Shown here: in pieces, positions 7,250 to 27,925 of the stretch
Layout: every line of letters starts with the position of its first letter
Numbering within the stretch: the first letter of the stretch is position 1
Origin: Candidatus Arthromitus sp. SFB-rat-Yit
Lineage (GTDB): Bacteria > Bacillota > Clostridia > Clostridiales > Clostridiaceae
DNA length: 32,000 nucleotides
Direction of reading: 5' to 3'
Assembly: GCF_000283555.1 (NCBI RefSeq)
Contig: NC_016012.1
Coordinates: forward strand, 475,497-507,496
Position numbers and translations under genes: made by a program
The notes under the pieces: model-generated
The model's input: only the letters and a program-made list of their open reading frames with translations
What the model was told of the DNA's origin: nothing
Database searches by the model: none

Positions 7250-7367
7250 TTATTTTTTTTGTGATTTATGTTTTACAAATAAATATTTTAAATAATGTTG
7301 TAAATTGGTTAAAGTTTTAATAAAGAATAACATCTATTAAATTATTTGTTTGAGGGAGATTAATATT

Positions 7368-7922
7368 ATGGTTGATTTAAGTACAGAGGTAATTACTGGA
7401 AGAGTTTGTTTTGATGATGTAAATATTTGGAAAGATAAGGCTATTAATGTAGACAATTTTGAATATTCAGTGTGCTTATTAATACCCAAATCAGATGGTA
7501 AGACATTAAGTGATATTAGAAAAGCTATAGAAAATGCAAAAAAAATAGGAATAAATATTTTAGATAATAAATTGAATTTAAATATTGAAAGTCCGTTAAA
7601 AGATGGACTTGAGAAATCTAAAGATGAAATTTATAAAGGTTGTTATTTTATAAATGCCATTAACATCAACCAGCCAGTTATATTGGATAAATTTAATAAA
7701 CCAATTAATAATAAAGAAGAATTTTATAATGGATGTTATGGATATGCTTCAATTAATTTTTACGCTTTTAATGATAATGTGAATAAGGGTATAACATGTA
7801 AAATCAATACTATTATAAAGACTGATGATGGAGATTTACAGAATAATAAGTTAAATGATTTGGTAGATATGTCTTGTATAGAAGCTATAAAATTAGAGGG
7901 TAGTGGAAGTTTTATGGTTTAG
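7368..7922 (+). CDS. DUF2815-family protein (phage-type single-stranded-DNA-binding-like protein)
   Basis: I prefer the ATG at 7368 because a GAGGGAG RBS lies upstream. The track TTG at 7350 overlaps that RBS. N-terminal VITGRV...YSVCLLIPKSD..T...I..AIE.AK and C-terminal FYNGCYGYASINFYAFN...NKGI.C match my recollection of the DUF2815 family found in phage replication modules. Confidence 0.7.
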   Translation: MVDLSTEVITGRVCFDDVNIWKDKAINVDNFEYSVCLLIPKSDGKTLSDIRKAIENAKKIGINILDNKLNLNIESPLKDGLEKSKDEIYKGCYFINAININQPVILDKFNKPINNKEEFYNGCYGYASINFYAFNDNVNKGITCKINTIIKTDDGDLQNNKLNDLVDMSCIEAIKLEGSGSFMV

Positions 7923-8023: not shown

Positions 8024-8225
8024 CTGTAAAAAGATACAATAATATTAAGATAATATTATTAAAAGATACTATTTTTTAATATTTAAGCATTAAAAGATAT
8101 TAATTTTTAATAATTTCTTAAATAGAAATTACTATTTCAAAAATTTATATGGATATATAATTAAAACATCAAGTAGGACAAACAAAATTTAAAAATAAGA
8201 AATAAAAGTTTAGGAGATGTTTAAT

Positions 8226-9572
8226 ATGTTAAAAAATAAAATTAAGAAAATATTATCAGTTGTAGCTTTAGGAGCATTAATAACAGTTGGAGCAGGAAGT
8301 GTAAAATCAATGGCAGTTAATACGCAACAAAATACAGCAGCAGTTGTTGCAGAAGATTATTCATATAGTAATTATGGATATGAAGATCTTATACAAGAGA
8401 TGTTGGATGAAGGATATATAGATCAAAATAGAGCTACTACTCTTAGAAGTGGTATTAATTCTGAAAATGGACAAATTGAAATAGATAAAACGTATGATTT
8501 ATATTTAGTTGATTTAGATGTAAAAGAGGGATATTACAGCAAAGAAGCTGGAGAAATTTATAAAAGAGTGATAGAAGCAGAATATGCAGGAAATTATGAT
8601 TTAGCTGATCAAATATATGACGAGCTTATTGTACAGTTAGATAAAGAAGGAGTAACAGCAGACGAAGATTTAGCAGGGTACTATAGTGAACTTGTAAGTG
8701 AAATGAAAGATGCTGGATATATAGATCAAGATAGAGCTAATACTTTCACAAATGATATTAATTCTGAAAATGTACAATTTGAAATAGAGAAAGCTTATTA
8801 TTTATATTTAATTGATTTAGATGTAAAAGAAGGGTATTACAGTAAAGAAGCTGGGGAAATGCATAAAAGATTGATAGAAGCAGAATACGCGGGAAATTAT
8901 GATTTAGCTGATCAAATATATGATGAGTTTATGGCACAGTTAGAGAAAGAAGGAGTAACAGTAAATGAAGATCTATCAGGGTACTATAGTGAGATTATAA
9001 GCGAAATGAAAGATGCTGGATATATAGATCAAAATAAAGCTAATACTTTTACAAATGATATTAATTCTGAAAATGTACAACTTGAAATAGATAAAATGTA
9101 TGATTTATATTTAATTGATTTAGATGTAAAAGAAGGATATTACAGTAAAGAAGCAGGAGAAATTTATAAAAGAGTGATAGAAGCAGAATATGCAGGAAAT
9201 TATGATTTAGCTGATCAAATATACGACGAGCTTATGGTACAGTTAAACAAAGAAGGAGTAACAGCAGACGAAGATTTAGCAGGGTACTATAGTGAACTTA
9301 TAAGTGAAATGAAAGATGCTGGATATATAGATCAAAATAAAGTTAATACTTTTACAAATGATATTAATTCTGAAAATGTACAACTTGAAATAGATAAAGC
9401 GTATGATTTATATTTAATCGATTTAGATGTAAAAGAGGGATATTACAGTAAAGAAGCTGCAGAAATAGAGAAGAGGTTAGTAGAAGCAGAATACGCAGGA
9501 AATTATGATTTAGCTGATCAAATATATGACGAGCTTATGGTACAGTTAGAGAAAGAAGGATTATTCCAATAG
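8226..9572 (+). CDS. Secreted acidic tandem-repeat protein of unknown function (4 x ~101 aa)
   Basis: I prefer the ATG at 8226. AGGAG at 8212-8216 directly abuts the track ATG at 8217 but lies 9 nt from 8226. Signal peptide MLKNKIKKILSVVALGALITVGAGSVKSMA, probably cleaved after SMA. The rest of the protein is four repeats. I recognise no known domain. Confidence 0.8.
   Translation: MLKNKIKKILSVVALGALITVGAGSVKSMAVNTQQNTAAVVAEDYSYSNYGYEDLIQEMLDEGYIDQNRATTLRSGINSENGQIEIDKTYDLYLVDLDVKEGYYSKEAGEIYKRVIEAEYAGNYDLADQIYDELIVQLDKEGVTADEDLAGYYSELVSEMKDAGYIDQDRANTFTNDINSENVQFEIEKAYYLYLIDLDVKEGYYSKEAGEMHKRLIEAEYAGNYDLADQIYDEFMAQLEKEGVTVNEDLSGYYSEIISEMKDAGYIDQNKANTFTNDINSENVQLEIDKMYDLYLIDLDVKEGYYSKEAGEIYKRVIEAEYAGNYDLADQIYDELMVQLNKEGVTADEDLAGYYSELISEMKDAGYIDQNKVNTFTNDINSENVQLEIDKAYDLYLIDLDVKEGYYSKEAAEIEKRLVEAEYAGNYDLADQIYDELMVQLEKEGLFQ
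8352..9569 (+). repeat. Coding tandem repeat, period 303 bp, 4 units (starts 8352, 8664, 8967, 9270; first unit 312 bp)
   Basis: Unit boundaries were checked codon by codon (the E-D-L/Y... starts). Alternate units are more alike than adjacent ones. 8521-8700 vs 9127-9306 differ at 8 of 180 nt by my count, while 8521-8580 vs 8824-8883 differ at 7 of 60 nt. Confidence 0.9.
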
Positions 9573-17323: not shown

Positions 17324-17455
17324 AAATAAATTCTCCTTTTAATTGCTTTGGATTTAGTATTGCACAAAAATAGAAAAAATTTCAAATGATTTTATGATTT
17401 AACAATTATTTTAAGAATGTACGGATTAATTAAATCAAGAAAGGAAGGAATTAAG

Positions 17456-20400
17456 TTGAGGAAATTAGATTTAAAAATTTTTAAATTTATGATTTTGATG
17501 TTAGTTGCGATTAGTTGTTTGAAAATTTATAGTGTTTATTCTAAAAATAAGGTGGTTAAACAATCTAGATCATATGATTTTGAATTAAATGTTGAAGATT
17601 TGAAATTTAATTCTGCTAGATTTAGTTGGGTTTATCCAGATGATTTTGAATTTATAGTTGGAGATTACATAAATTTATTTTTGATTAATGAAGAAAGTGG
17701 AAGTAATGGAGAAAGTCCGATTTTTTCTGCTATTCATGGTAAAGATGGAAATGATCTGTCTAATATTACGAGTCTTGATTTTGATTCGCTTACACATTCA
17801 ACAAAATATCAATTGAAATTAGAATTTAATCAAATACATGGAGATTATTATAGTGTTGAAAAAAACTTTGAAACAAATGATTTTGAGATATCGGATATCC
17901 AAATAGATGGGATAGAGGATGGGGTTGTTAAAAATAAATTGATAAATGTTAAATGGAAAACAAATCCTGAATCAATATCCTTTGGAGAAAATGATAAAGT
18001 TGAAATACTTTTAAAAGAGTTGAGTGATGAAAGTTTTAGAAGGAATCCAATTTTTTCATCAAATAAAGATGTTAAAAATGCAGAATTTTCTCTTCCGGTA
18101 TTTGAAGGCATGTATGACCTTCAAATAGTTTATTACATAAAAGATGATATTATTTACAGTGATTTATTTTATTGTGATTTAAAAAGTGGGGGGATAGAGC
18201 TTATTACTCAAGATATAAAAACATCTTCTGCAAAACTTGTTTTAAATTATCCGAATCAGGATATTTTAAGCGATAATACTAAGGTTAATATTTATATTAG
18301 GGAAGATATGAATCTTGATTATAGTAAAGATCCGATAATTTCATTTAGTGGAAAGGAAGACATACTTAAAAATAAGGAGTATGTATTTAATAAGCTTAAA
18401 TTCTCAACAAAATATTACGTTAAAGTTCAATTCATCATTGAAACTTTTAACAAATTTGGTAAAGATGTTCCAGTTGTAGTTGAGAGTAATTGTGAATTTG
18501 AAACGAAAAAATTTGGTGTAAAAGATTTGAAATTTACTGATGGAAATGAAAATATATCAAAGCTTAGTTGGGATTTTGATGGTGAGGAAATCTTATTTTC
18601 TGAAGGGGATAGTTTAAAAGTTTACATAAAAGAGAGTTTGGAAGATAGTTATTCTGAAAATATTTTAAAAGATATTAGCCTGAGTGCAGAAGAATTATTA
18701 ACTAAAAAGGATTTAGATATTACATTTCCAAAGTACGATACAAAGTATGATATTAAGTTCAATTATAATATCGGAGGAAGAAATCTCTTTGAGTATTTAA
18801 CTCACACGGTTTCTTTACCTAAAATTGATTTTGGGGTTAAGGTAATAGGTGAGGATAGCTTAAATTTTAAAATTAAATTTGATCAAAATAAAACTAAATT
18901 TGAAAAAAATGATGATGATAAGATAGAAATTTTTGTTAAAAAATATGGGGAAAACGATGAGGCTTATAGATCTATAAATTTTACGGAAAATCAAATTACT
19001 GCTGAGCCAGAAAAAGCAAAAGAAGGGGATGCGGAAAATATAGTAGAGAGGGAACTTAAACTTGAAACAATTTCATCAGTTTTTGGGGAAAATCAGCCTT
19101 CTACAGTAGAAGGAGATGGAAACTCACAAAATACTCAAACAGAGAAAAAACAATATGAATTTAAAATTATTGTTAGGAAAGATGGGGCGATGTTTCAAGA
19201 AAAGTTTTATAGAGTTTCAATGGAGGAAAATTCCCTTCAAATTGTTGATGTTGTATTCAAAAGGATAAGTGAGAAAAAAATTGAGGCAAGTGTTGAGTAT
19301 GCTCCATATGATTATGAATTTTCAGATAAAGTTGAATCGCTAAGTTATACAAAGAGTAAGGACACAACTGCTAAGTCTGTACTTAAAAAGAGAACATCAA
19401 CTGAAAGTCAAATAACAAGTGAATTTAAAACTAATAGGAAGTTTGAAATAAGTTTTGATGATTTCGGAGTTTATAAATTGAAATTTTCATACAAGATGAA
19501 GGAAACTCAGGCTACAAATAGAGATGGGAGTGAAAGTTCAGAAAGTAAATTTAATATAACTGAGATGGAAAAAGTTTATAATAATAAATTTGATGTTTTT
19601 AGACTGGAACTTAGAGATGATATTTTTAATGAAATAAAGCTAAATTTAGATTTTGATAGCTATTACACTCCTAAAAATGGAGATAAGGTTGAAATATTTT
19701 TTAAGGTTAATAGTGAAGACGAAACAGATAAAAAGAGCGAAGACTTTAGTAAAGATCCATTAGTTACATTTGTTCATAAAGATAATGAACTTAATTTATC
19801 AAATATGGGAGCTTTTGATTTAGCAGGATTAGATGCTGGAACTAAATACAGTTTTAAGGTAATATTTACTCCTAAAGATTCACAATCAAATGCAATAGAA
19901 AAATATAAAGATGCAGAAACTAAAGATATTAAAATTTCTAATTTAGTAATTGATCATGTATCGGACATAATTGCGTATGCAAGATGGGAACTCGAAGAAG
20001 GATGTGAATTTGGAGTTAATGATAAATTGGATATTTTTTATAAAAAAGATGGTGAGGAGTATCCCAAAGATCCAAATCAGCAAGAAGAAGATTTGTATAT
20101 TAATGATGGGGTTATTCTTTATTTAGATACGGTTGATACTCAGTATAATATAAAATTTGTGTTTAGAAGTGGAAGTAAAACTTTTGAGGAAGAGGTGGAT
20201 TTCAATAATAAGATAAATGATTTAGAAGTTGAAATTTTAGATATATATGAAACCTCAGTATATGTGAAATGGGATTATCCTGAAAATTATAGTATTACAG
20301 ATGGTGAGAGTATTTCAATATTTTTAAAAAGAAAAGATGGAGTTTATGCTGAAGAGCCTGATTATTTTGTTGAACAAAATGATGAGGAAGGAGAAGATAT

Positions 20401-21772
20401 AGAAACATTTAAAAGTGTTAAGATTACAAGTTTATGTCCAAATATGGAATATGATATAAAGCTTGTATTAGATTTTGGAGATGTAGGGAAAAAAGAAAAG
20501 GAAATCAGTTTTAAATCTAAGGAACTTGATATATCAAATATCTCACTGAAAGCATTAACAAATAAATTCTTTGATGTATCTTGGGAGTTTTCTTCAGATA
20601 CGCTAGAATTCGATGATGAGTTGGATTATATAAATATTTATAAAAAAATTGAGGATGAAGAATTTTCAGAATCCAATATTGTTTTTGAAATTGATAAAAA
20701 TATTGATAAACGAAACAGTGTAAGAATTGAGGTTGATGATATTTCTAAAAATTATGATGTTAAAGTTGAATATGAATTTTTGTTTGGAAGTATAGAGAAA
20801 ACGATTTCTGGAGGAGGATTATTTTTAGAATTTGAGGAAGATTCACCAAACTTAATTTTGAAATATCCTAAATCTTTAGTATTTGAAAATGGGGATTCTA
20901 TAGATATTTTTTCAAAGCATGAATCTGAAGAAGAATATAAAGAGTTTATGAATATAAAACATTCATCTTCTAAAAATTTAAATGAAATAGGAAGTATAGA
21001 GCTTGATAATCCAGTTTCTGGAACATCATTTATTTTAATTATTAACAACAAGAATACTCAAGTATTCCCTGTTATGGCTAATTATGGAAATGGAGAATAT
21101 GAAGGAGATGAGTCAGAATACCCAGTTTTGGATATTGTTAGTGAGATGAAGGGAAACTGGGTGGATATACAGATTCCTGATGAATACGAAGTTGATATTT
21201 CATCAGAAGTTTTAAATAGTATTGGTGGAAATTCTTATTATGCTGAGTTAGAGGATGGAAGCTATGTAATTGTAATAGATAGGATTGTACCGAAAAAAGT
21301 TTATTCTAATGTGTTTGTTTTAACTTCAGATATAGATGGAAATGAAGTTAGATTTGATATAGGTGAATTTAAGCTTGAACCATATAATTTGCTAGAAGAT
21401 TTCTTATATAATTCTTATTATTTTGCATTTGATAGAGAGCCTGATGAAAACGGATACAATTATTGGAAGGATCAACTCGAAGAGGAAGAGAGCAGTATAT
21501 CTGGTAAATATTTTTTAATTAATTTGATGTTTGCTGAGAGGGAGTTTGCAGATAGAAATTTAAGTGATGAAGATTTGATAAAAGTTTTATATCAAATTGT
21601 GGTTAATAGACAGTATGATACTGAAGGATTAAATTATTGGATTTCTGTATATGGAGAGTATTTGGAAGAGTTTGGTGGAGATAAGTATGAAGCAAAGAAA
21701 ACTATAGTTTTAAGAATGGCTTATGAGCCTGAGTTCGGAAGATTGTGTGATAAGATGGGAATAGCTTGGTAA
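17456..21772 (+). CDS. Giant secreted multi-module protein (~1438 aa) with doubled DUF4214-like C-terminus
   Basis: I prefer the TTG at 17456 because GGAAGG lies 7 nt upstream. The track ATG at 17417 has no RBS. The N-terminus is basic then hydrophobic (RKLDLKIFKFMILMLVAISCL). About 11 modules of roughly 100 aa follow. The C-terminus has FAFDREPDENGYNYW and VNRQYDTEGLNYW, the DUF4214-type signature ([LF]-x-R-x-[PY]-D-x-x-G-x-x-Y-W). Confidence 0.8.
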   Translation: MRKLDLKIFKFMILMLVAISCLKIYSVYSKNKVVKQSRSYDFELNVEDLKFNSARFSWVYPDDFEFIVGDYINLFLINEESGSNGESPIFSAIHGKDGNDLSNITSLDFDSLTHSTKYQLKLEFNQIHGDYYSVEKNFETNDFEISDIQIDGIEDGVVKNKLINVKWKTNPESISFGENDKVEILLKELSDESFRRNPIFSSNKDVKNAEFSLPVFEGMYDLQIVYYIKDDIIYSDLFYCDLKSGGIELITQDIKTSSAKLVLNYPNQDILSDNTKVNIYIREDMNLDYSKDPIISFSGKEDILKNKEYVFNKLKFSTKYYVKVQFIIETFNKFGKDVPVVVESNCEFETKKFGVKDLKFTDGNENISKLSWDFDGEEILFSEGDSLKVYIKESLEDSYSENILKDISLSAEELLTKKDLDITFPKYDTKYDIKFNYNIGGRNLFEYLTHTVSLPKIDFGVKVIGEDSLNFKIKFDQNKTKFEKNDDDKIEIFVKKYGENDEAYRSINFTENQITAEPEKAKEGDAENIVERELKLETISSVFGENQPSTVEGDGNSQNTQTEKKQYEFKIIVRKDGAMFQEKFYRVSMEENSLQIVDVVFKRISEKKIEASVEYAPYDYEFSDKVESLSYTKSKDTTAKSVLKKRTSTESQITSEFKTNRKFEISFDDFGVYKLKFSYKMKETQATNRDGSESSESKFNITEMEKVYNNKFDVFRLELRDDIFNEIKLNLDFDSYYTPKNGDKVEIFFKVNSEDETDKKSEDFSKDPLVTFVHKDNELNLSNMGAFDLAGLDAGTKYSFKVIFTPKDSQSNAIEKYKDAETKDIKISNLVIDHVSDIIAYARWELEEGCEFGVNDKLDIFYKKDGEEYPKDPNQQEEDLYINDGVILYLDTVDTQYNIKFVFRSGSKTFEEEVDFNNKINDLEVEILDIYETSVYVKWDYPENYSITDGESISIFLKRKDGVYAEEPDYFVEQNDEEGEDIETFKSVKITSLCPNMEYDIKLVLDFGDVGKKEKEISFKSKELDISNISLKALTNKFFDVSWEFSSDTLEFDDELDYINIYKKIEDEEFSESNIVFEIDKNIDKRNSVRIEVDDISKNYDVKVEYEFLFGSIEKTISGGGLFLEFEEDSPNLILKYPKSLVFENGDSIDIFSKHESEEEYKEFMNIKHSSSKNLNEIGSIELDNPVSGTSFILIINNKNTQVFPVMANYGNGEYEGDESEYPVLDIVSEMKGNWVDIQIPDEYEVDISSEVLNSIGGNSYYAELEDGSYVIVIDRIVPKKVYSNVFVLTSDIDGNEVRFDIGEFKLEPYNLLEDFLYNSYYFAFDREPDENGYNYWKDQLEEEESSISGKYFLINLMFAEREFADRNLSDEDLIKVLYQIVVNRQYDTEGLNYWISVYGEYLEEFGGDKYEAKKTIVLRMAYEPEFGRLCDKMGIAW
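17576..21382 (+). repeat. Array of diverged ~95-130-aa beta-sandwich-like (Fn3/Ig-like by pattern) modules, alternating two classes
   Basis: The repeat is visible only at protein level. Class A examples: VYVKWDYPENYSITDGESISIFL, AKLVLNYPNQDILSDNTKVNIYI. Class B examples: INVKWKTNPESISFGENDKVEILLK...YDLQIVYYI, SKLSWDFDGEEILFSEGDSLKVYIK...YDIKFNYNIGG. Confidence 0.65.
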
Positions 21773-21795
21773 TTTTGTATTTATGGAGGAGAAAA

Positions 21796-24700
21796 ATGAA
21801 GACATGTATGAAGAAATTCATTATTAATCTCATGATTCTTATATTTTTATTTGAATTAATTCCGCTTGGAGATATGGGTATTAAATTAGGATTTGTTGAA
21901 AAATCTAGTGCTTATTATACCCAGCTTGATTCAGTTGCTCCAGGTTATGTGATAAGTGCTGAGGAGGGAGGGATTGTATTTGATTTAAGTCAAAGATTAT
22001 CAAGCTCGATGAGTGTTGAATCATTTAGTATAAAGAATATGAATCCAGAACAACAGAAAAAAGATTTGAAAGAAGAATCTTCAGATGGAGTTAGATGGTT
22101 AACAAAAGATGAAATGATAAATGGTCATATCTATGAAATTGAAAGTAAGATTTATGATTCTGAAATCGATAAGACATTAACATTTATAAATTCTTTTAAA
22201 TTTACAGATAAAAATACAGCGTACAATCCTAAGGTATCTTTTTCAAATTTTGATGCTAATAGGATGATTACTCAAGATGTTTTTTTTGATTTTTCAAATT
22301 GTAAAGAATTGATAAATAATTCAAATAGATTAGATCTTGAGATTTTAAATTCTGATTTAACAAAGGCAGAAATAGATTCAGTTTTTGTTGATAAAAATGA
22401 CCTTGTAAATGCTGGTTATAGATATAAACTTTCCAGAGCAGCATCTATTTTTAAACCGAACAAGGATTATATAATTAGACTTAATGCAGATGGTGTTATT
22501 TGGGATAAGATGATTTCTTGTTCATTAAAGGCAAATCCTACATTAGTTGAAAATATTAGACCTACAGAGATAGATTTTAAATATTATGCTAAGCAAAGAA
22601 ATCTTTTCATTCCGACATTAGATTTTGGAATTTGTAAAACGTTTACTGATAGGCATCATGTTGAAGTTAAGATTATTTTAAGTAATTCAAAAAAAGGTCT
22701 TGTTCCAGTTGAAGTAACAGGTGAAATACCACGTTTAGCAGAAATTAATATTCCAGAAGAATATTGTTCAACAATAATACCAAGTGATATAAGAGTTTAT
22801 TTTTCTGATAAATATACTGGAGCTTTACTTGCTGAGTATTTATTTCAAGTTACATTTAAAGAGGGCGGGTGTTTTATGTGGACTGGACTTTCTTATTATG
22901 GAGAAAAAGATATATCAGGTTATCAAATAACTAAAATAACACCAGTTCATGAAGAAAATGATACTACAACTGTTCCACATTCATGGGATGAATTTCCACG
23001 AGCACATTATATAACTTTATATGATAATAAATTAGAAAATCAAATAGGTGGAGAATATAGATTTGATGTTACAAAAACTAAATATGAATATGTAGGTGCG
23101 GAGCAGAATGTTAAAGGTGCTAACTTTAAAGTGCCGTTTAAAGATATGAGGCAAGGTTTTAATAGTTATAATTTTAAATTTGAATCGAGCAATCGTTATC
23201 CAGAATGGGGATATGCGTATATACCATTTGGTTTTTATGCGGATATAGTTGAAATAAAAGATTTAGACATTGAGGTAAAGGATTTAAAAGTAAATTCTTC
23301 AGGTAAATATGATTTTAGTTTCGAACTGAAAAATCAAAATGTTATCACAGGTGATAAGATGAGCATTATAGATGATAATGGTAAAGAATATATAGCTAAT
23401 GTAAATACTTCAAAGAGATTTAATTTTAAAGATATTCCATTAGTGTTTGGAGGTAAATATGTAGTTACTTATAATAAAATAAGTTCACTTTTTCACTTTA
23501 AATCTACGGATATGTCTATATTATTTAATCCAGTTGTAATAGGAACTTCTTCAAATGGTCAAAATGTTGTTGAAATTGATTTTGATAAGAAATATGAGAA
23601 GATCCTAAACTCAGATAGGATGAAAAATCGTATTAGAATATTGCACATGAATGGTAATAGCACAGGGAATGAATTTACGGATTTTAATGTAGGAAAACAT
23701 AAATTTACATTAAGTTCAGGACTGACTGAAGGACAAAATTATATAGTGGAGTTTTCAAACTCTAAGGAGGAAACGTATAAAACTACGTTTCAGTATACTA
23801 CAATGAAGCTTGACTTGTCAGACGTAACAGGGACAACAGCGAAATTAAATTGGGAATATCCTAGTAATTATCTAATAACAGATGGAGATGTATTAAATAT
23901 ATATTTCAAAAAAGAGGATGCTAACTATCCAGCTATTCCTGATGCTAAAATAATGCATGGATTTCAGGGTATAGATTTTAATGATGTGACAACATATACG
24001 ATTAGAAACATGAGTCCAAATATAAATTACGTTGCAAAACTTGAACTTGTAACTAATGAGGGTATGACCTATGTAGATGAAACTGAGTTTGTAACAAGTA
24101 CTTTTAAAATATTGAATGAAGAAATTGAAGGTATTTCTGAGGATGGTACTGTAAACAGTAAATCTATAAATTTTAAATGGGATATAAATCTTGGTGATAT
24201 AGAATTTAATGCAGGAGATAAGGTAGAACTTTTTCTTAAATTGCGTTCTCATAATGCATTCCCTAAAACGCCAGTATCGACGATAGATCAAGATTTAAAT
24301 AGAAATAAACGGATTAAATTTGATGTATCAAATTATTATGAAGATTATAGTGCAAAAATTGTTTATACAATAGGTGGAGTTCGTCATACAAGTAAAGTTT
24401 TAAATTTTAGTGTAGAGCCGGAAAAATTAGAATTATCTGTAAATGATATTACAGATTATTCGGCTGTCGTTAATTGGAAATATCCAGAAGGTATAAATAT
24501 AGAAAATAATCATGAGATTAGGGTTTATTTAAGAAAAGCTGGTGATTTAGATTATAGACTTGAAAAGACATATAAACAGTCTGAAACTTCTCTTAAAGAT
24601 GTAACTAAATATAAGTTTGATAAACTTAGATTTGAAACTACGTACCAAGTTAAGCTTGTTTATAAAGTTGGAGATAAGCAAGTTGCAGGAGTAAGTGAGG

Positions 24701-27700
24701 ATGTAACACAAGATATCGAAATAGAATTTAGGACGGAAAGTTTTGTTATAAATAATCTTCGTTTTGAAAAGGATATGAATAATCTTGTAAATGTAATGTG
24801 GAATTTAAAAAATGATAATTATCCTTATGTTAATGGTGATTCAGTAGAATTATTTTTAAAAGAAAGAGGAGCACCATCACAGAATTATAAAAAATTCCAA
24901 TATGCAACAGGGAATATTTCAGCAGTGAGAGCATTTAACATAATGATACCTAAATTTAATGTAGATTATGATATGAAATTGACTTATACTTTGGGTGGTA
25001 AACAAGTTAGTGCTTATGGAAATTGTAGACTTGATATGGGAGATATAGGTTTTAATGTTGATGAGATAACAGATACTAAAATTAAAGTTTCTTGGACATA
25101 CCCAGATAATTATAGTATTTCAAATAATGATAAGATTGAAGTATCTTTGAAAAATCTTGAAGATGGAAATAATGTGGAATCTGAATCGAAGACACAAAAT
25201 TATGATAATAATAATACTACTATGATTAAAGATTTTAAGGAAAAAGAATTTACTTTAACTAAAGATAAAATGTATGAAGTTAAGATTAGATTTTCATCGG
25301 TATATGCAGAACCTATTGAGAAATCGTTTAAATTTAAAGCTACTTCTGGATTTCAAATTTTAGGTTTAGTTGGTAAGTCTTTAGATTCTAAATCATTTAA
25401 ACTTGAATGGGATTTTTACAATAATAATGAGGAATTTGATTCAAATAGTAAAATTGAAATTTTATACAAAGAAGAACCAAAGGGAAGTTCACAAGATGCT
25501 TCACAAGACAATAATGTTGAAGATAAATTATTTGAAAATGTTAATCCTGTTTCAACTCGTACTGGAAGTGAATTGAAAGAATTTAAGTCTTATGTAGTTG
25601 AGGGACTTGATGTAAATAAAAATTATTTGTTTAGAGTTCGGTATACTATTACTGGAGATTCGGGAAAGGTAGTATACAAAGATTTGGTAGGTAAAACAGA
25701 AGCAAGAAAAATAACTTCGAGCGTAATTGATACACAACCTACAGGTGTTAAAATTTCAGTTGAGTATCCGGAGAACTATGAAATATTAGAAGGTGATATC
25801 TTAGATATATTTATAAGAAGAAAAGAAGAAACGAATTATTCAGTTAATCCTAATTTTACTGGAAAGCATGGCAGTGGGGAAGATGATGTTGACTTAAATG
25901 AAGTAACTGTACTTGATATACTTGGATTATCTCCAAATAAAGAATATTTTTCTAAAGTTGTATTTTGGCCAGATGGTGGTTCGGGAATTAAACAAGAGAT
26001 GGAACTTAGCTTTAAAACAGACGTAGTAGAAGGTATAGGAGAAGTAATTATAGGTGACGTTTTAGATTATGTGGTAAAAGTAGGAATTAAGATGGAGCCA
26101 GATGAGCTTATTTTAAGTGATAAAGATAGTTGTAAGGTTTTTATAAAGAAGAAAGATCAAACTCATTATCCAGATAAATCAAATGGTGAAATTCGTGGAG
26201 ATATATTTAATGAAGAAAAATTTATATCAGCATATTTTGATGAATTGAACGCAGAGTACGATGTGAAGGTTATAGTGAATATTGGTGGCAATGAGTTTGA
26301 AAAGGAAACTAGTTTTGTAAGTAAGATTGATGATTTTAATATTGATGTTAAAGAAATTAATCCGATGACGACGCAAGTAGAATGGAGATATCCAAATAAT
26401 TATACACTTGTGGATGGTGAAAGTATTCAGATATTTATCAAATATCAAGATGAGGATGATTTTTTAAGTGAACCTGATCTTGAACTTATTCAATCAGATG
26501 ATTTGAATTTATCTGATATAAATTTGGTTGAATTATATTCATTGATTCCTGATACTAGATATGAAGTTAAGGTGAAATTGAATTTATTAGAAGCGGATGT
26601 AAAACCAGTTATTAAGGAATTTACTACAACTGTTTTTGAGATAGAGAATCTTGAAATACAGGACATAAGTAGTGATGGAATGTCTATTAAATGGGATCTG
26701 AGTACAGAAGAATTAGATTTTATAGATGAGTATGATAATTTATCTGTTTTTATTAAGAATAGCAATGAAGAAGATTATGATTTTTCAAATCCTGTGGCAG
26801 AGTTCACAGAAGGTTTAAATGATATAAGGTCAATATCTTTTCAAACAGAAGATAGCATAGCAGATGTTGATATTTATTTATCATATTTAATTGAAGATTA
26901 TGAAGCTGCTATGGAAATATCATATACAGCAATTGATTTAAATGTTGAAGTGCAACAAGAAGGGGTATTAGTTGAATGGACGTATCCACCTGGAATAGAA
27001 TTTGAAAAAGATGATAGACTCGATATTTATTTGAAACATGCTAATAAGTCGGGATATAAGACAGAACCAAATTTTAGATATACTAATGGAAAAGATGGCG
27101 ATCTAAGTGAATTAAATGAAATATTTTTCAAAAGATTAGGAATTGGAAACTATGTGATGAAGTTTTCATTAATCACAAGTGATATGAGATATAATCCTAT
27201 AGAAATCGAGTTCAATGTGCAGGATCAAGATGTGGTCGGAACAGAACTTAAGTTTAATGGAAAATCAAGTAATAGAAAAATAGAATTAGATATTGTTGGT
27301 GATAATGAATTTGATTATGAAAAAGGGTTTAACATTAATCCTGAAGGTTTGGATCTTGAGATAGATGAGGTTAGAAATAAATTTATAGTTAAGAATCTGG
27401 TTCCAGGGAAAGATTATAAAAATATTGTTATTACTTTTTACACAGAAGAAGACGATGAAATTAATTTTGTAGTTAAAAATGTAAAGATAAATCCTGAAAA
27501 TCTTTTGCAAGAATTTATAACAAATATTTATAAATTTGCATTTGAGCGTTATCCAGATGAGGAAGGATATGGATATTGGCTTGGAAGACTTCTTGAAAAA
27601 GGAGAAGTTACAGGTAAGTTTGTTTTATATAATTTGATGTTTGCAGAACGTGAATTTTCTGAAAGAAATCTTTCAGATGATGAATTAATAAAAGTTTTAT

Positions 27701-27885
27701 ACCAAATAGTAGTTAACAGAGAATATGATGAAGGAGGATTGAATTATTGGATAGGTGAATATAGAAACACATATTTACCACAAGCTAATAATGATAGTTA
27801 TGAGGCACAAAAAGCTATAGTTGCAAGAATGTTACATGAGCAAGAGTTCAAAGATTTGTGTAACAAAATGGGTATCTTGTGGTAA
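21796..27885 (+). CDS. Giant secreted multi-module protein (~2029 aa), paralog of the upstream gene, with doubled DUF4214-like C-terminus
   Basis: ATG at 21796 with a GGAGGAG RBS, 23 nt after the upstream stop. The track start at 21766 would overlap the upstream gene and has no RBS. Signal-like N-terminus MKTCMKKFIINLMILIFLFELIPLG. A roughly 669-aa non-repetitive head is followed by about 12 modules, then a C-terminus (FAFERYPDEEGYGYW, VNREYDEGGLNYW) co-linear with that of the upstream protein. Confidence 0.85.
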   Translation: MKTCMKKFIINLMILIFLFELIPLGDMGIKLGFVEKSSAYYTQLDSVAPGYVISAEEGGIVFDLSQRLSSSMSVESFSIKNMNPEQQKKDLKEESSDGVRWLTKDEMINGHIYEIESKIYDSEIDKTLTFINSFKFTDKNTAYNPKVSFSNFDANRMITQDVFFDFSNCKELINNSNRLDLEILNSDLTKAEIDSVFVDKNDLVNAGYRYKLSRAASIFKPNKDYIIRLNADGVIWDKMISCSLKANPTLVENIRPTEIDFKYYAKQRNLFIPTLDFGICKTFTDRHHVEVKIILSNSKKGLVPVEVTGEIPRLAEINIPEEYCSTIIPSDIRVYFSDKYTGALLAEYLFQVTFKEGGCFMWTGLSYYGEKDISGYQITKITPVHEENDTTTVPHSWDEFPRAHYITLYDNKLENQIGGEYRFDVTKTKYEYVGAEQNVKGANFKVPFKDMRQGFNSYNFKFESSNRYPEWGYAYIPFGFYADIVEIKDLDIEVKDLKVNSSGKYDFSFELKNQNVITGDKMSIIDDNGKEYIANVNTSKRFNFKDIPLVFGGKYVVTYNKISSLFHFKSTDMSILFNPVVIGTSSNGQNVVEIDFDKKYEKILNSDRMKNRIRILHMNGNSTGNEFTDFNVGKHKFTLSSGLTEGQNYIVEFSNSKEETYKTTFQYTTMKLDLSDVTGTTAKLNWEYPSNYLITDGDVLNIYFKKEDANYPAIPDAKIMHGFQGIDFNDVTTYTIRNMSPNINYVAKLELVTNEGMTYVDETEFVTSTFKILNEEIEGISEDGTVNSKSINFKWDINLGDIEFNAGDKVELFLKLRSHNAFPKTPVSTIDQDLNRNKRIKFDVSNYYEDYSAKIVYTIGGVRHTSKVLNFSVEPEKLELSVNDITDYSAVVNWKYPEGINIENNHEIRVYLRKAGDLDYRLEKTYKQSETSLKDVTKYKFDKLRFETTYQVKLVYKVGDKQVAGVSEDVTQDIEIEFRTESFVINNLRFEKDMNNLVNVMWNLKNDNYPYVNGDSVELFLKERGAPSQNYKKFQYATGNISAVRAFNIMIPKFNVDYDMKLTYTLGGKQVSAYGNCRLDMGDIGFNVDEITDTKIKVSWTYPDNYSISNNDKIEVSLKNLEDGNNVESESKTQNYDNNNTTMIKDFKEKEFTLTKDKMYEVKIRFSSVYAEPIEKSFKFKATSGFQILGLVGKSLDSKSFKLEWDFYNNNEEFDSNSKIEILYKEEPKGSSQDASQDNNVEDKLFENVNPVSTRTGSELKEFKSYVVEGLDVNKNYLFRVRYTITGDSGKVVYKDLVGKTEARKITSSVIDTQPTGVKISVEYPENYEILEGDILDIFIRRKEETNYSVNPNFTGKHGSGEDDVDLNEVTVLDILGLSPNKEYFSKVVFWPDGGSGIKQEMELSFKTDVVEGIGEVIIGDVLDYVVKVGIKMEPDELILSDKDSCKVFIKKKDQTHYPDKSNGEIRGDIFNEEKFISAYFDELNAEYDVKVIVNIGGNEFEKETSFVSKIDDFNIDVKEINPMTTQVEWRYPNNYTLVDGESIQIFIKYQDEDDFLSEPDLELIQSDDLNLSDINLVELYSLIPDTRYEVKVKLNLLEADVKPVIKEFTTTVFEIENLEIQDISSDGMSIKWDLSTEELDFIDEYDNLSVFIKNSNEEDYDFSNPVAEFTEGLNDIRSISFQTEDSIADVDIYLSYLIEDYEAAMEISYTAIDLNVEVQQEGVLVEWTYPPGIEFEKDDRLDIYLKHANKSGYKTEPNFRYTNGKDGDLSELNEIFFKRLGIGNYVMKFSLITSDMRYNPIEIEFNVQDQDVVGTELKFNGKSSNRKIELDIVGDNEFDYEKGFNINPEGLDLEIDEVRNKFIVKNLVPGKDYKNIVITFYTEEDDEINFVVKNVKINPENLLQEFITNIYKFAFERYPDEEGYGYWLGRLLEKGEVTGKFVLYNLMFAEREFSERNLSDDELIKVLYQIVVNREYDEGGLNYWIGEYRNTYLPQANNDSYEAQKAIVARMLHEQEFKDLCNKMGILW
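23803..27495 (+). repeat. Array of alternating class-A / class-B ~100-aa modules (about 5.5 A-B pairs plus one terminal divergent module)
   Basis: The repeat is visible only at protein level. Class A examples: AKLNWEYPSNYLITDGDVLNIYF, AVVNWKYPEGINIENNHEIRVYL, IKVSWTYPDNYSISNNDKIEVSL, VKISVEYPENYEILEGDILDIFI, TQVEWRYPNNYTLVDGESIQIFI, VLVEWTYPPGIEFEKDDRLDIYL. Each is followed by a class B module ending in YSAKIVYTIGG, YDMKLTYTLGG, YLFRVRYTITG, YDVKVIVNIGG or VDIYLSYLI. Confidence 0.7.
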
Positions 27886-27889
27886 TATA

Positions 27890-27925
27890 TTAACCATCAA
27901 TTTATATTGATGGTTAATTTTTTTT
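27890..27925 (+). terminator. Rho-independent terminator after the giant-gene pair
   Basis: 11-bp perfect stem ttaaccatcaa / ttgatggttaa with a 6-nt loop, followed by 8 T. Confidence 0.85.

Follow-up and report, generated by a model that had tools for sequence, protein, structure and literature searches.

Two adjacent giant DUF4214 proteins of segmented filamentous bacteria as candidate surface fibres

What are the two giant modular proteins encoded side by side in the genome of Candidatus Arthromitus sp. SFB-rat-Yit, and how might they be held at the cell surface? This organism is one of the segmented filamentous bacteria (SFB), a group of gut commensals, and its host is the rat. We analysed a 32,000-nucleotide stretch of its 1,515,556-bp genome (contig NC_016012.1, positions 475,497 to 507,496 of the forward strand; hereafter the window), which is chromosomal and has a GC content of 22–31%. 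The two genes, RATSFB_0417 and RATSFB_0418, are called ORF1 and ORF2 here (ORF, open reading frame). We consider it probable that they encode paralogous, Sec-exported, acidic, wall-associated fibrillar surface proteins, members of the family of secreted DUF4214 proteins that is specific to SFB.

SFB are the textbook commensals that shape mucosal immunity (Th17, IgA and CD8 responses) through intimate, host-specific attachment. In molecular terms their surface is almost blank: it has no sortase and no classical wall-binding domains, and the S-layer, the hairs and the adhesin are unassigned. DUF4214 proteins are the main candidates for surface components, and two of them are already known as dominant CD4 and CD8 T-cell antigens. 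The locus described below encodes very large members of this family and yields a putative anchor, boundaries between rod and head, and a bounded variable cassette.

Domain architecture of the two proteins

The ORF1 product (1438 amino acids) is 100% identical to WP_242821416.1 / BAK80979.1 and the ORF2 product (2029 amino acids) is identical to WP_014094443.1 / BAK80980.1; both carry the NCBI name "DUF4214 domain-containing protein". Reading frames of 4.3 and 6.1 kb in DNA of 26–30% GC cannot arise by chance. The mature proteins would be acidic, with a mass of about 164 kDa and a pI of 4.5 for ORF1 and about 230 kDa and 4.7 for ORF2. By BLASTP the entire ORF1 protein is colinear with residues 656–2029 of ORF2 (27% identity, E = 9e-128), which bears out the paralogous pair proposed in an earlier note on this DNA. 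According to this alignment, ORF2 is an ORF1-like body with about 620 extra residues at its N-terminus.

Both proteins end in the same unit. Their last 130 residues are 61% identical, in agreement with the shared C-terminal unit of about 130 residues that the earlier note had described, and both match the family it had named for checking, DUF4214 (PF13946), above the cut-off of 23.2 bits (54.4 bits for ORF1 and 47.7 bits for ORF2, in two stretches per protein at the extreme C-terminus). An AlphaFold2 model of the unit, built from the ORF2 copy, consists of seven helices (pLDDT 87, pTM 0.78). When this model was compared with the PDB by Foldseek, the top 41 matches were either phycobilisome structures or phycobilisome-linker domains on their own, 2KY4 among them, and the likeness is moderate (TM-score about 0.5, E-values from 0.01 to 0.6). 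A sequence profile of the unit found no relative in the PDB, and a short-query word-index search with the C-terminal 140 residues returned only six close fragments. The units are acidic and 16–19% aromatic, a composition that we infer would suit glycan stacking better than charge binding.

The earlier note had found none of the usual anchoring repeats and no catalytic motif, and our searches of both proteins agree. Neither an LPxT[GASN], LPXTG or NPXTG motif nor a C-terminal hydrophobic segment is present, which places the proteins outside the sortase-anchored LPXTG class. Pfam at E ≤ 1 gave no SLH, CWB2, choline-binding or GW match, NCBIfam gave nothing, and there is no catalytic domain in either protein. 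There is likewise no Pfam match to RTX or hemolysin-type calcium-binding repeats and there are no type I secretion system (T1SS) genes in the window, as there would be for an RTX-DUF4214 protein of the kind found in Pseudomonas. The absence of a Pfam match to PF00427 distinguishes both proteins from true phycobilisome linker polypeptides, and the organism is a non-photosynthetic relative of Clostridium.

Most of each protein is a string of diverged modules. A single module used as a phmmer seed gave 21 module matches, and an iterated hidden Markov model (HMM) delimited 11 modules per protein; the E-values of the iterated HMM are inflated because it was built from ORF1 and ORF2 themselves. Pfam fn3 (PF00041) provides independent backing for a predicted FN3-like beta-sandwich fold of these modules, since both proteins exceed its cut-off of 25 bits: ORF2 scores 73.7 bits over four stretches, and ORF1 reaches 32.3 bits as a sum with no single significant stretch. 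Beta-rich modules of about 100 residues thus dominate both proteins, as had been proposed. Pairwise identity between modules is 8–36%, and along the array modules of a "WxYPxxY" type take turns with others that are one residue longer. Module 5 of ORF1 carries an acidic, low-complexity insert at about residues 500–590. No tandem repeats were found at the DNA level beneath the modules, which argues that the array is old and that slipped-strand phase variation is unlikely.

The N-terminal head of ORF2 has no Pfam match. Exhaustive HMMER searching through 1.84 billion representative proteins retrieved only two full-length SFB orthologues, one fragment and a spurious match (P0053, below), and by this measure the head occurs only in SFB orthologues. 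An AlphaFold2 model, made from a four-sequence alignment, suggests about six beta-sandwich domains (pLDDT 70). Foldseek searches with this model returned strings of Ig or FN3 domains (gp130, fibronectin FN4-7, complement MG domains and the BSP domain of Bap) and no lectin or enzyme fold. At the level of sequence we considered whether the head consists of further diverged FN3-like modules, and rejected this, as hhalign comparisons of the head with the modules and with itself gave probabilities of at most 1.4% and showed no internal repeat; beta-sandwiches in the head are suggested only by the structure model. Another candidate relative, protein P0053, is a six-fold bacterial globin repeat that matched over one stretch of 67 residues only and was judged spurious.

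Each protein begins with the signal-like segment that the earlier note had pointed to, and whose lack it had said would count against it. Hydrophobic 19-mers scoring above 1.6 are confined to residues 3–30 of each protein. Orthologues of ORF1 retain an n-region, an h-region and a small residue at position −1, and ORF1 has no textbook AXA site. In six ORF2 orthologues an AXA-type site (SSA, AEA, AKA or ASA) directly precedes the mature N-terminus [YF]xTQLDSIAPGY, and the conservation of both argues that the ORF2 N-terminus is cleaved rather than being a membrane anchor. Neither protein matches the lipobox L-[AS]-[GA]-C expected of a lipoprotein. From this combination of features we infer that both proteins are secreted and associated with the surface.

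Conservation, variation and gene context

In all the relatives that we examined, ORF1 and ORF2 are intact and lie side by side within the same murG...zapA context, namely in mouse SFB (nine distinct contigs), the third rodent-type lineage L019, GCA_964271565, the chicken SFB Candidatus Dwaynia gallinarum and two metagenome-assembled genomes. The pair is therefore syntenic in six or more SFB lineages, a result that is new here; the earlier note had asked whether the two genes co-occur and whether they are disrupted in relatives, and they are neighbours, and undisrupted, throughout. A scan of a genome collection with very specific patterns found five loci, each a close orthologue or paralogue from SFB. 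In mouse SFB, ORF1 corresponds to its orthologue SFBNYU_010710 and ORF2 to the downstream neighbour of that gene.

Both genes are under purifying selection, the strength of which differs greatly from one part of each protein to another. In the comparison of rat with mouse SFB, the ratio of nonsynonymous to synonymous substitution rates (dN/dS) is 0.22 for ORF1 and 0.24 for ORF2, and that of eleven neighbouring genes is 0.07–0.21. The DUF4214 unit is the most constrained part (dN/dS 0.05; 91.5% identity in ORF1 and 93% in ORF2). The rods and the head are 65–76% identical with dN/dS of 0.2–0.33 (ORF1 rod, 65–71% and 0.20–0.30), the pre-C module of ORF1 is 83% identical, and the ORF1 signal region is only 40% identical.

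Within the ORF2 head lies a sharply bounded segment of about 1.1 kb that behaves as an allelic cassette. Two mouse-SFB lineages (loci L001/L013 compared with L002/L010) differ by zero to three amino acids per gene over the 22-kb locus outside ORF2, with none in ORF1. ORF2 differs between the same lineages by 141 substitutions and an indel of five amino acids, and some 295 of its 302 nucleotide differences fall within nucleotides 439 to about 1560 of the gene. The two mouse alleles, A and B, have 75.2% DNA identity in the cassette, where mouse and rat SFB have 74–77%, and over the remainder of the first 2.1 kb of ORF2 A and B are 99.8% identical. The synonymous divergence (dS) of the cassette is 0.50, compared with 0–0.012 elsewhere in the gene, and its dN/dS is about 0.5. 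In part of the cassette allele B resembles the rat allele more closely than it does mouse allele A, and across six orthologues the cassette is the least conserved segment of the head. This pattern of divergence indicates recombinational exchange of old allele classes and not recent point mutation. A scan of Joint Genome Institute (JGI) metagenomes for further head alleles found no relatives. "Striking differences" between mouse lineages in some SFB-specific proteins had already been noted (Pamp et al., PMC3371716); their mapping to a sharply bounded cassette in the head is new in this analysis.

A second variable zone covers modules m3–m6 of the ORF2 rod. Among rat SFB, mouse SFB and L019 this zone has 50–57% amino acid identity and a dN/dS of 0.49–0.56, and the modules that flank it have 77–84% identity and a dN/dS of 0.11–0.16. 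Between L019 and mouse SFB, housekeeping genes are 89–95% identical, and identity is 67–74% in the m3–m6 region (window positions 24256–25713) and 72% in the insert of ORF1 module 5 (18984–19242), which is also hypervariable.

Additional paralogues were observed. In GCA_964271565.1 (locus L004, positions 20416–24272; contig CAXWUM010000015.1) a third, tandem ORF2-like gene, called at 2022 amino acids and extending past the end of the locus, follows directly after the pair, so the copy number of the locus varies between lineages. Elsewhere in SFB genomes there is a third family of giant paralogues of about 1900–2011 amino acids (L008, 2391–8423; L009, 1–1887; proteins P0012–P0017), which have FN3 modules, DUF4214 and a short C-terminal tail (…GIFWRQSDQDAAGVVA). 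The N-terminal 420 residues of this family resemble the ORF2 head weakly (24% identity, E = 0.008–0.02).

Positions of all features are listed in Table 1. ORF1 starts at a TTG codon (17456) six nucleotides past the ribosome-binding site AAAGGAAGGA; WP_242821416.1 uses the same start, and both the site and the TTG codon are kept in mouse SFB. ORF2 starts at an ATG codon (21796) downstream of GGAGG. A hairpin scan of the spacer found nothing terminator-like, and the arrangement described in the earlier note, two reading frames 23 nucleotides apart with one shared terminator, was found as claimed. Its proposal of a single operon agrees with the gap, the terminator and the conserved adjacency, and we regard it as probable.

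Upstream of ORF1 there is a weak sigma-70-like match at 17371–17398. It agrees at 9 of 12 positions, and in the promoter scan such sites were no more frequent (in fact fewer) than in shuffled sequences, so that a promoter for ORF1 is not established. About 80 nucleotides 5' of ORF1 are near-identical between rat and mouse SFB (window positions 17324–17455 compared with L001 8002–8121), and just 3' of them lies the signal-peptide region with its much lower protein identity. These 80 nucleotides may contain a conserved regulatory element.

Table 1. Features of the ORF1-ORF2 locus (positions in the window; aa, amino acids; RBS, ribosome-binding site)
Feature	Start	End	Strand	Description
Upstream intergenic region with ORF1 RBS	17324	17455	+	Sequence read; RBS AAAGGAAGGA at 17440–17449
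ORF1 (RATSFB_0417)	17456	21772	+	Signal peptide, 11 FN3-like modules, pre-C module, C-terminal DUF4214
ORF1 signal peptide, predicted	17456	17542	+	aa 1–29; MRKLDLK, hydrophobic core, predicted cleavage between VYS and KNK
ORF1 rod	17561	21064	+	aa 36–1203; 11 diverged FN3-like modules (module HMM, Pfam fn3)
ORF1 pre-C module	21065	21379	+	aa 1204–1308; about 100 aa, no FN3-like HMM match
ORF1 DUF4214 unit	21380	21769	+	aa 1309–1438; all-helical, putative wall- or lattice-association domain; PF13946 E = 1.3e-14
ORF1-ORF2 spacer	21773	21795	+	23 nt; GGAGG at 21785–21789, no terminator
ORF2 (RATSFB_0418)	21796	27885	+	Signal peptide, orphan head, 11 FN3-like modules, pre-C module, DUF4214
ORF2 signal peptide, predicted	21796	21912	+	aa 1–39; predicted cleavage between SSA and YYTQ
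ORF2 head	21913	23775	+	aa 40–660; about six beta-sandwich domains (model), SFB-restricted in the HMMER search
Hypervariable allelic cassette in ORF2 head	22234	23355	+	aa about 147–520; about 1.1 kb
ORF2 rod	23785	27195	+	aa 664–1800; 11 FN3-like modules, colinear with ORF1 rod
Second variable zone, ORF2 m3–m6	24409	25668	+	aa 872–1291
ORF2 pre-C module	27196	27492	+	aa 1801–1899
ORF2 DUF4214 unit	27493	27882	+	aa 1900–2029; seven helices, phycobilisome-linker-like fold (model); PF13946 E = 1.6e-12
Intrinsic terminator	27889	27925	+	13-bp stem (27889–27918), 4-nt loop, then T-run

The upstream neighbours are a recJ-like gene, a PAS histidine kinase gene, murG, a gene for a TPR protein and three small hypothetical genes, and the downstream neighbours are zapA and genes for rubrerythrin, a CDF transporter and a MatE transporter. 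An Rfam scan of the window gave no match. Farther upstream, between a low-molecular-weight phosphatase gene and recJ, lies an isolated gene (7350–7922, + strand) for a phage-type, Gp2.5/Enc34-like single-stranded DNA-binding protein (PF10991, E = 2e-42; phrog_112). It is followed by a gene for a 451-residue protein with only weak matches (8217–9572, + strand). At the syntenic site L004 lacks a counterpart of either gene, which suggests a small phage-derived insertion.

Proposed surface role and competing readings

Secreted DUF4214 proteins of SFB have been described before. Cluster.1 of SFB comprises 19 secreted proteins with a C-terminal DUF4214 whose tandem helices resemble the phycobilisome linker 2KY4, and Cluster.3 has a similar C-terminus and one member with FN3; both clusters were proposed to form surface structures and are also present in SFB-rat-Yit (Pamp et al. 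2012, PMC3371716). At least 14–19 predicted SFB surface proteins bear the C-terminal motif (PMC7474095, PMC3371716). SFB lack sortase, and the motif was postulated to be the wall anchor of at least 14 surface proteins; among them is the Th17 antigen p3340, which was located in the cell wall by immuno-electron microscopy (Jonsson et al. 2020, PMC7474095). DUF4214 was subsequently regarded as a likely surface-anchoring domain by Cruz et al. 2025 (PMC12780176), who also reported that the Th17 antigen's domain of unknown function occurs in SFB peptidoglycan hydrolases; we take this shared domain to be DUF4214. A further DUF4214 protein, SFBNYU_003240, is a CD8 T-cell antigen (2026 preprint).

ORF1 and ORF2 have the features of this family: they are encoded by SFB, they have an N-terminal hydrophobic segment and they end in a seven-helix, phycobilisome-linker-like C-terminus. 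We would assign them to Cluster.1 or Cluster.3 on these grounds. The earlier note had recognised no characterised family with this architecture and no anchor, and on both points it has to be corrected, because the SFB-specific secreted DUF4214 family was published in 2012, 2020 and 2025 and the C-terminal unit is the Pfam domain already proposed in print as a wall anchor. Given these proposals, the mode of anchoring is hypothesised rather than unrecognised, and the role of DUF4214 as wall anchor of ORF1 and ORF2 is likewise hypothesised here. No homology over the full length to any characterised family of adhesins or S-layer proteins was found; the note had named such homology as evidence that would contradict it. 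The family and the anchor hypothesis are thus already published and the genes already annotated; new here are the colinearity of ORF1 with ORF2 656–2029, the SFB-only head, the synteny of the pair, the constraint on DUF4214 and the head cassette.

In the reading that we favour, ORF1 and ORF2 would be co-transcribed, for which the 23-nucleotide gap, the single terminator and the conserved adjacency speak. Both proteins would be exported and their signal peptides cleaved, a step supported by the AXA-type site of ORF2. The aromatic-rich helical DUF4214 unit would then hold each protein non-covalently at the envelope through a wall glycopolymer or a lattice partner, as its conservation and the literature suggest. 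From there the beta-sandwich domains, about 12 in ORF1 and about 18 in ORF2, would project as a string for roughly 40–65 nm outward. In ORF2 the SFB-only head with its cassette (residues 147–520) and the mid-rod would diversify fast and recombine between lineages, as expected of an exposed part in contact with the immunity or ligands of the host or with phages. Since there is no catalytic domain, the role would be structural, adhesive or shielding. The extracellular fibre- or adhesin-like pair of the earlier note therefore survives as far as the proteins are of secreted type, modular, beta-rich and paralogous; a role as fibre or adhesin is plausible, and the description of the family as uncharacterised falls away.

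Several points weigh against this reading. The signal peptides were judged by eye, the promoter scan identified no promoter, and the head model is of medium confidence given its pLDDT and small alignment. Our literature search found no mention of RATSFB_0417, RATSFB_0418 or SFBNYU_010710. Published SFB peptides and T-cell epitopes map to neither protein: the Th17 epitope is absent from both, and the human-SFB DUF4214 peptides (PMC6034559) match neither the proteins nor their orthologues with up to two substitutions allowed. The nearest solved fold to DUF4214, in a moderate match, is also that of a protein-protein adaptor.

This last point bears on whether DUF4214 instead serves protein-protein assembly, in which case ORF1 and ORF2 would be subunits that form an S-layer lattice, or proteins released into a matrix or biofilm. 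Their size, their acidity (pI 4.5–4.7) and their lack of catalytic domains would suit such a role as well as the adaptor-like fold does; in addition, the intracellular offspring of SFB bear an S-layer of unknown composition (PMC12780176), and in other bacteria it has been suggested that DUF4214 proteins contribute to the S-layer (PMC11970703). However, the reported SFB S-layer subunits are globular or crescent-like at 8-nm spacing and not long rods (PMC12780176), and Pfam found no lattice-forming domain in either protein. Strings of 12–18 beta-sandwich domains are, moreover, typical of fibrillar stalks and not of two-dimensional lattices, and we think this explanation unlikely. Quite unlikely, in our judgement, is an inverted topology in which an uncleaved N-terminal signal-anchor sits in the membrane, the rod crosses the wall and DUF4214 forms a distal, ligand-binding tip. 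An exposed tip should vary, but DUF4214 is the most conserved part and the variable, recombining parts are N-proximal and mid-rod. The hydrophobic cores are admittedly long, at about 18–20 residues, and ORF1 is without a textbook AXA site; yet the ORF2 orthologues keep their AXA-type site at the mature start while the signal region drifts, and the divergence of the ORF1 signal region between rat and mouse is typical of a discarded leader. Binding of an O-antigen glycan by a Pseudomonas DUF4214 protein implies that the domain might be a ligand-binding tip, whereas the recurrence of the Th17 antigen's domain on SFB wall hydrolases (PMC12780176) argues for a place at the wall.

The proteins could also be made in sporulation and belong to the spore surface, as coat or as exosporium nap; the earlier note had allowed for the spore surface as one option. 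The hair-like naps of other Firmicutes spores consist of long repetitive proteins. SFB form spores (PMC3371716). We nevertheless hold this to be very improbable, as Sec-type signals are atypical of coat and exosporium proteins, which assemble in the mother-cell cytoplasm. Pfam found no collagen-like or known coat domain, the neighbouring genes, murG and zapA among them, serve vegetative housekeeping, and no sporulation-type promoter turned up, although no proper search for one was made.

If ORF1 and ORF2 are wall-associated fibres, their length can be compared with that of structures seen on SFB. If each domain takes up 3.2–3.8 nm, as in FN3 tandems, the 12-domain rod of ORF1 would be about 38–46 nm long when fully extended, and ORF2 about 58–68 nm. 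By cryo-electron tomography an ordered hair-like layer replaces the S-layer on SFB filaments, and transient, disordered hairs occur at the adhesive tip; the hairs measure 28–34 nm by about 1.4 nm at a spacing of 5 nm and are conserved between mouse and rat SFB (PMC12780176). The composition of the hairs and the S-layer "remains unknown", and the Th17 antigen was judged an unlikely component of the disordered hairs (PMC12780176). The length of ORF1 is near the upper range for such hairs and could fit, all the more so if the wall covers the C-terminal modules. The fit is poorer for ORF2, which would be too long unless bent or partly buried. That ORF1, possibly together with ORF2, is a structural subunit of the hairs is a doubtful proposition to which we would give some limited credence; were it true, the head cassette of ORF2 would be a module of antigenic or host-contact variation on the SFB coat. 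The cassette could in any case underlie strain- or host-specific antigenicity.

Comparison with known systems

The closest known proteins are the other secreted DUF4214 proteins of SFB, including p3340 (SFBNYU_003340) and SFBNYU_003240, which share with ORF1 and ORF2 the group of organisms, the secretion signal and the helical C-terminal DUF4214. That family likewise evolves faster than the proteome average, is polymorphic between mouse lineages and has been proposed to be anchored at the surface or wall. ORF1 and ORF2 differ from the known antigens in having distinct orthologues, in their mass of 164 and 230 kDa, and in consisting nearly entirely of 12–18 beta-sandwich modules. Orthology to the antigens 003340 and 003240 was considered and rejected, given the mouse orthologue of ORF1 identified above and the absence of the SGLIYVTL epitope. 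Hypothetical extracellular proteins of human SFB range from 57 to 2040 amino acids (Jonsson et al., PMC7474095).

Of the solved folds, the phycobilisome linker domain (PF00427; PDB 2KY4, 3OSJ and 3NPH) comes closest to the C-terminal unit, and the likeness to 2KY4 reported in 2012 (PMC3371716) is reproduced here by Foldseek. Its sequence identity to the unit is 11–20%, with the TM-score given above, and it functions in the context of cyanobacterial light harvesting.

A secreted RTX-DUF4214 protein of Pseudomonas putida, Psh, binds the O-antigen of lipopolysaccharide (bioRxiv 10.64898/2026.09.02.748959). Like ORF1 and ORF2 it is secreted and has a C-terminal helical DUF4214; it sits on the O-antigen and shields the surface. 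However, Psh comes from a Gram-negative bacterium, uses type I secretion and has RTX calcium-binding repeats in place of FN3 modules, whereas ORF1 and ORF2 have a Sec-type signal, no RTX repeats and no T1SS genes nearby.

In overall layout the two proteins recall the fibrillar adhesins of Gram-positive bacteria (SasG/Aap and Bap-type), which have a stalk of Ig- or FN3-like repeats, bind through a distal region and are anchored by a C-terminal LPXTG motif. They share with them a signal peptide, a tandem beta-sandwich stalk, a distinct region at the N-terminus and a module for attachment at the C-terminus, and among the Foldseek matches of the head are the BSP domain of Bap and FN3 strings of fibronectin. 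In contrast to these adhesins, they lack an LPXTG motif, a membrane segment at the C-terminus and any recognised adhesive domain, and there is no sortase in SFB. Their stalk modules are old and diverged (8–36% identity, no DNA repeats), whereas many adhesins have near-identical repeats. Attachment of ORF1 and ORF2 would be non-covalent, via DUF4214, and if this domain does bind the wall it would represent a new non-covalent anchoring mechanism for Gram-positive bacteria.

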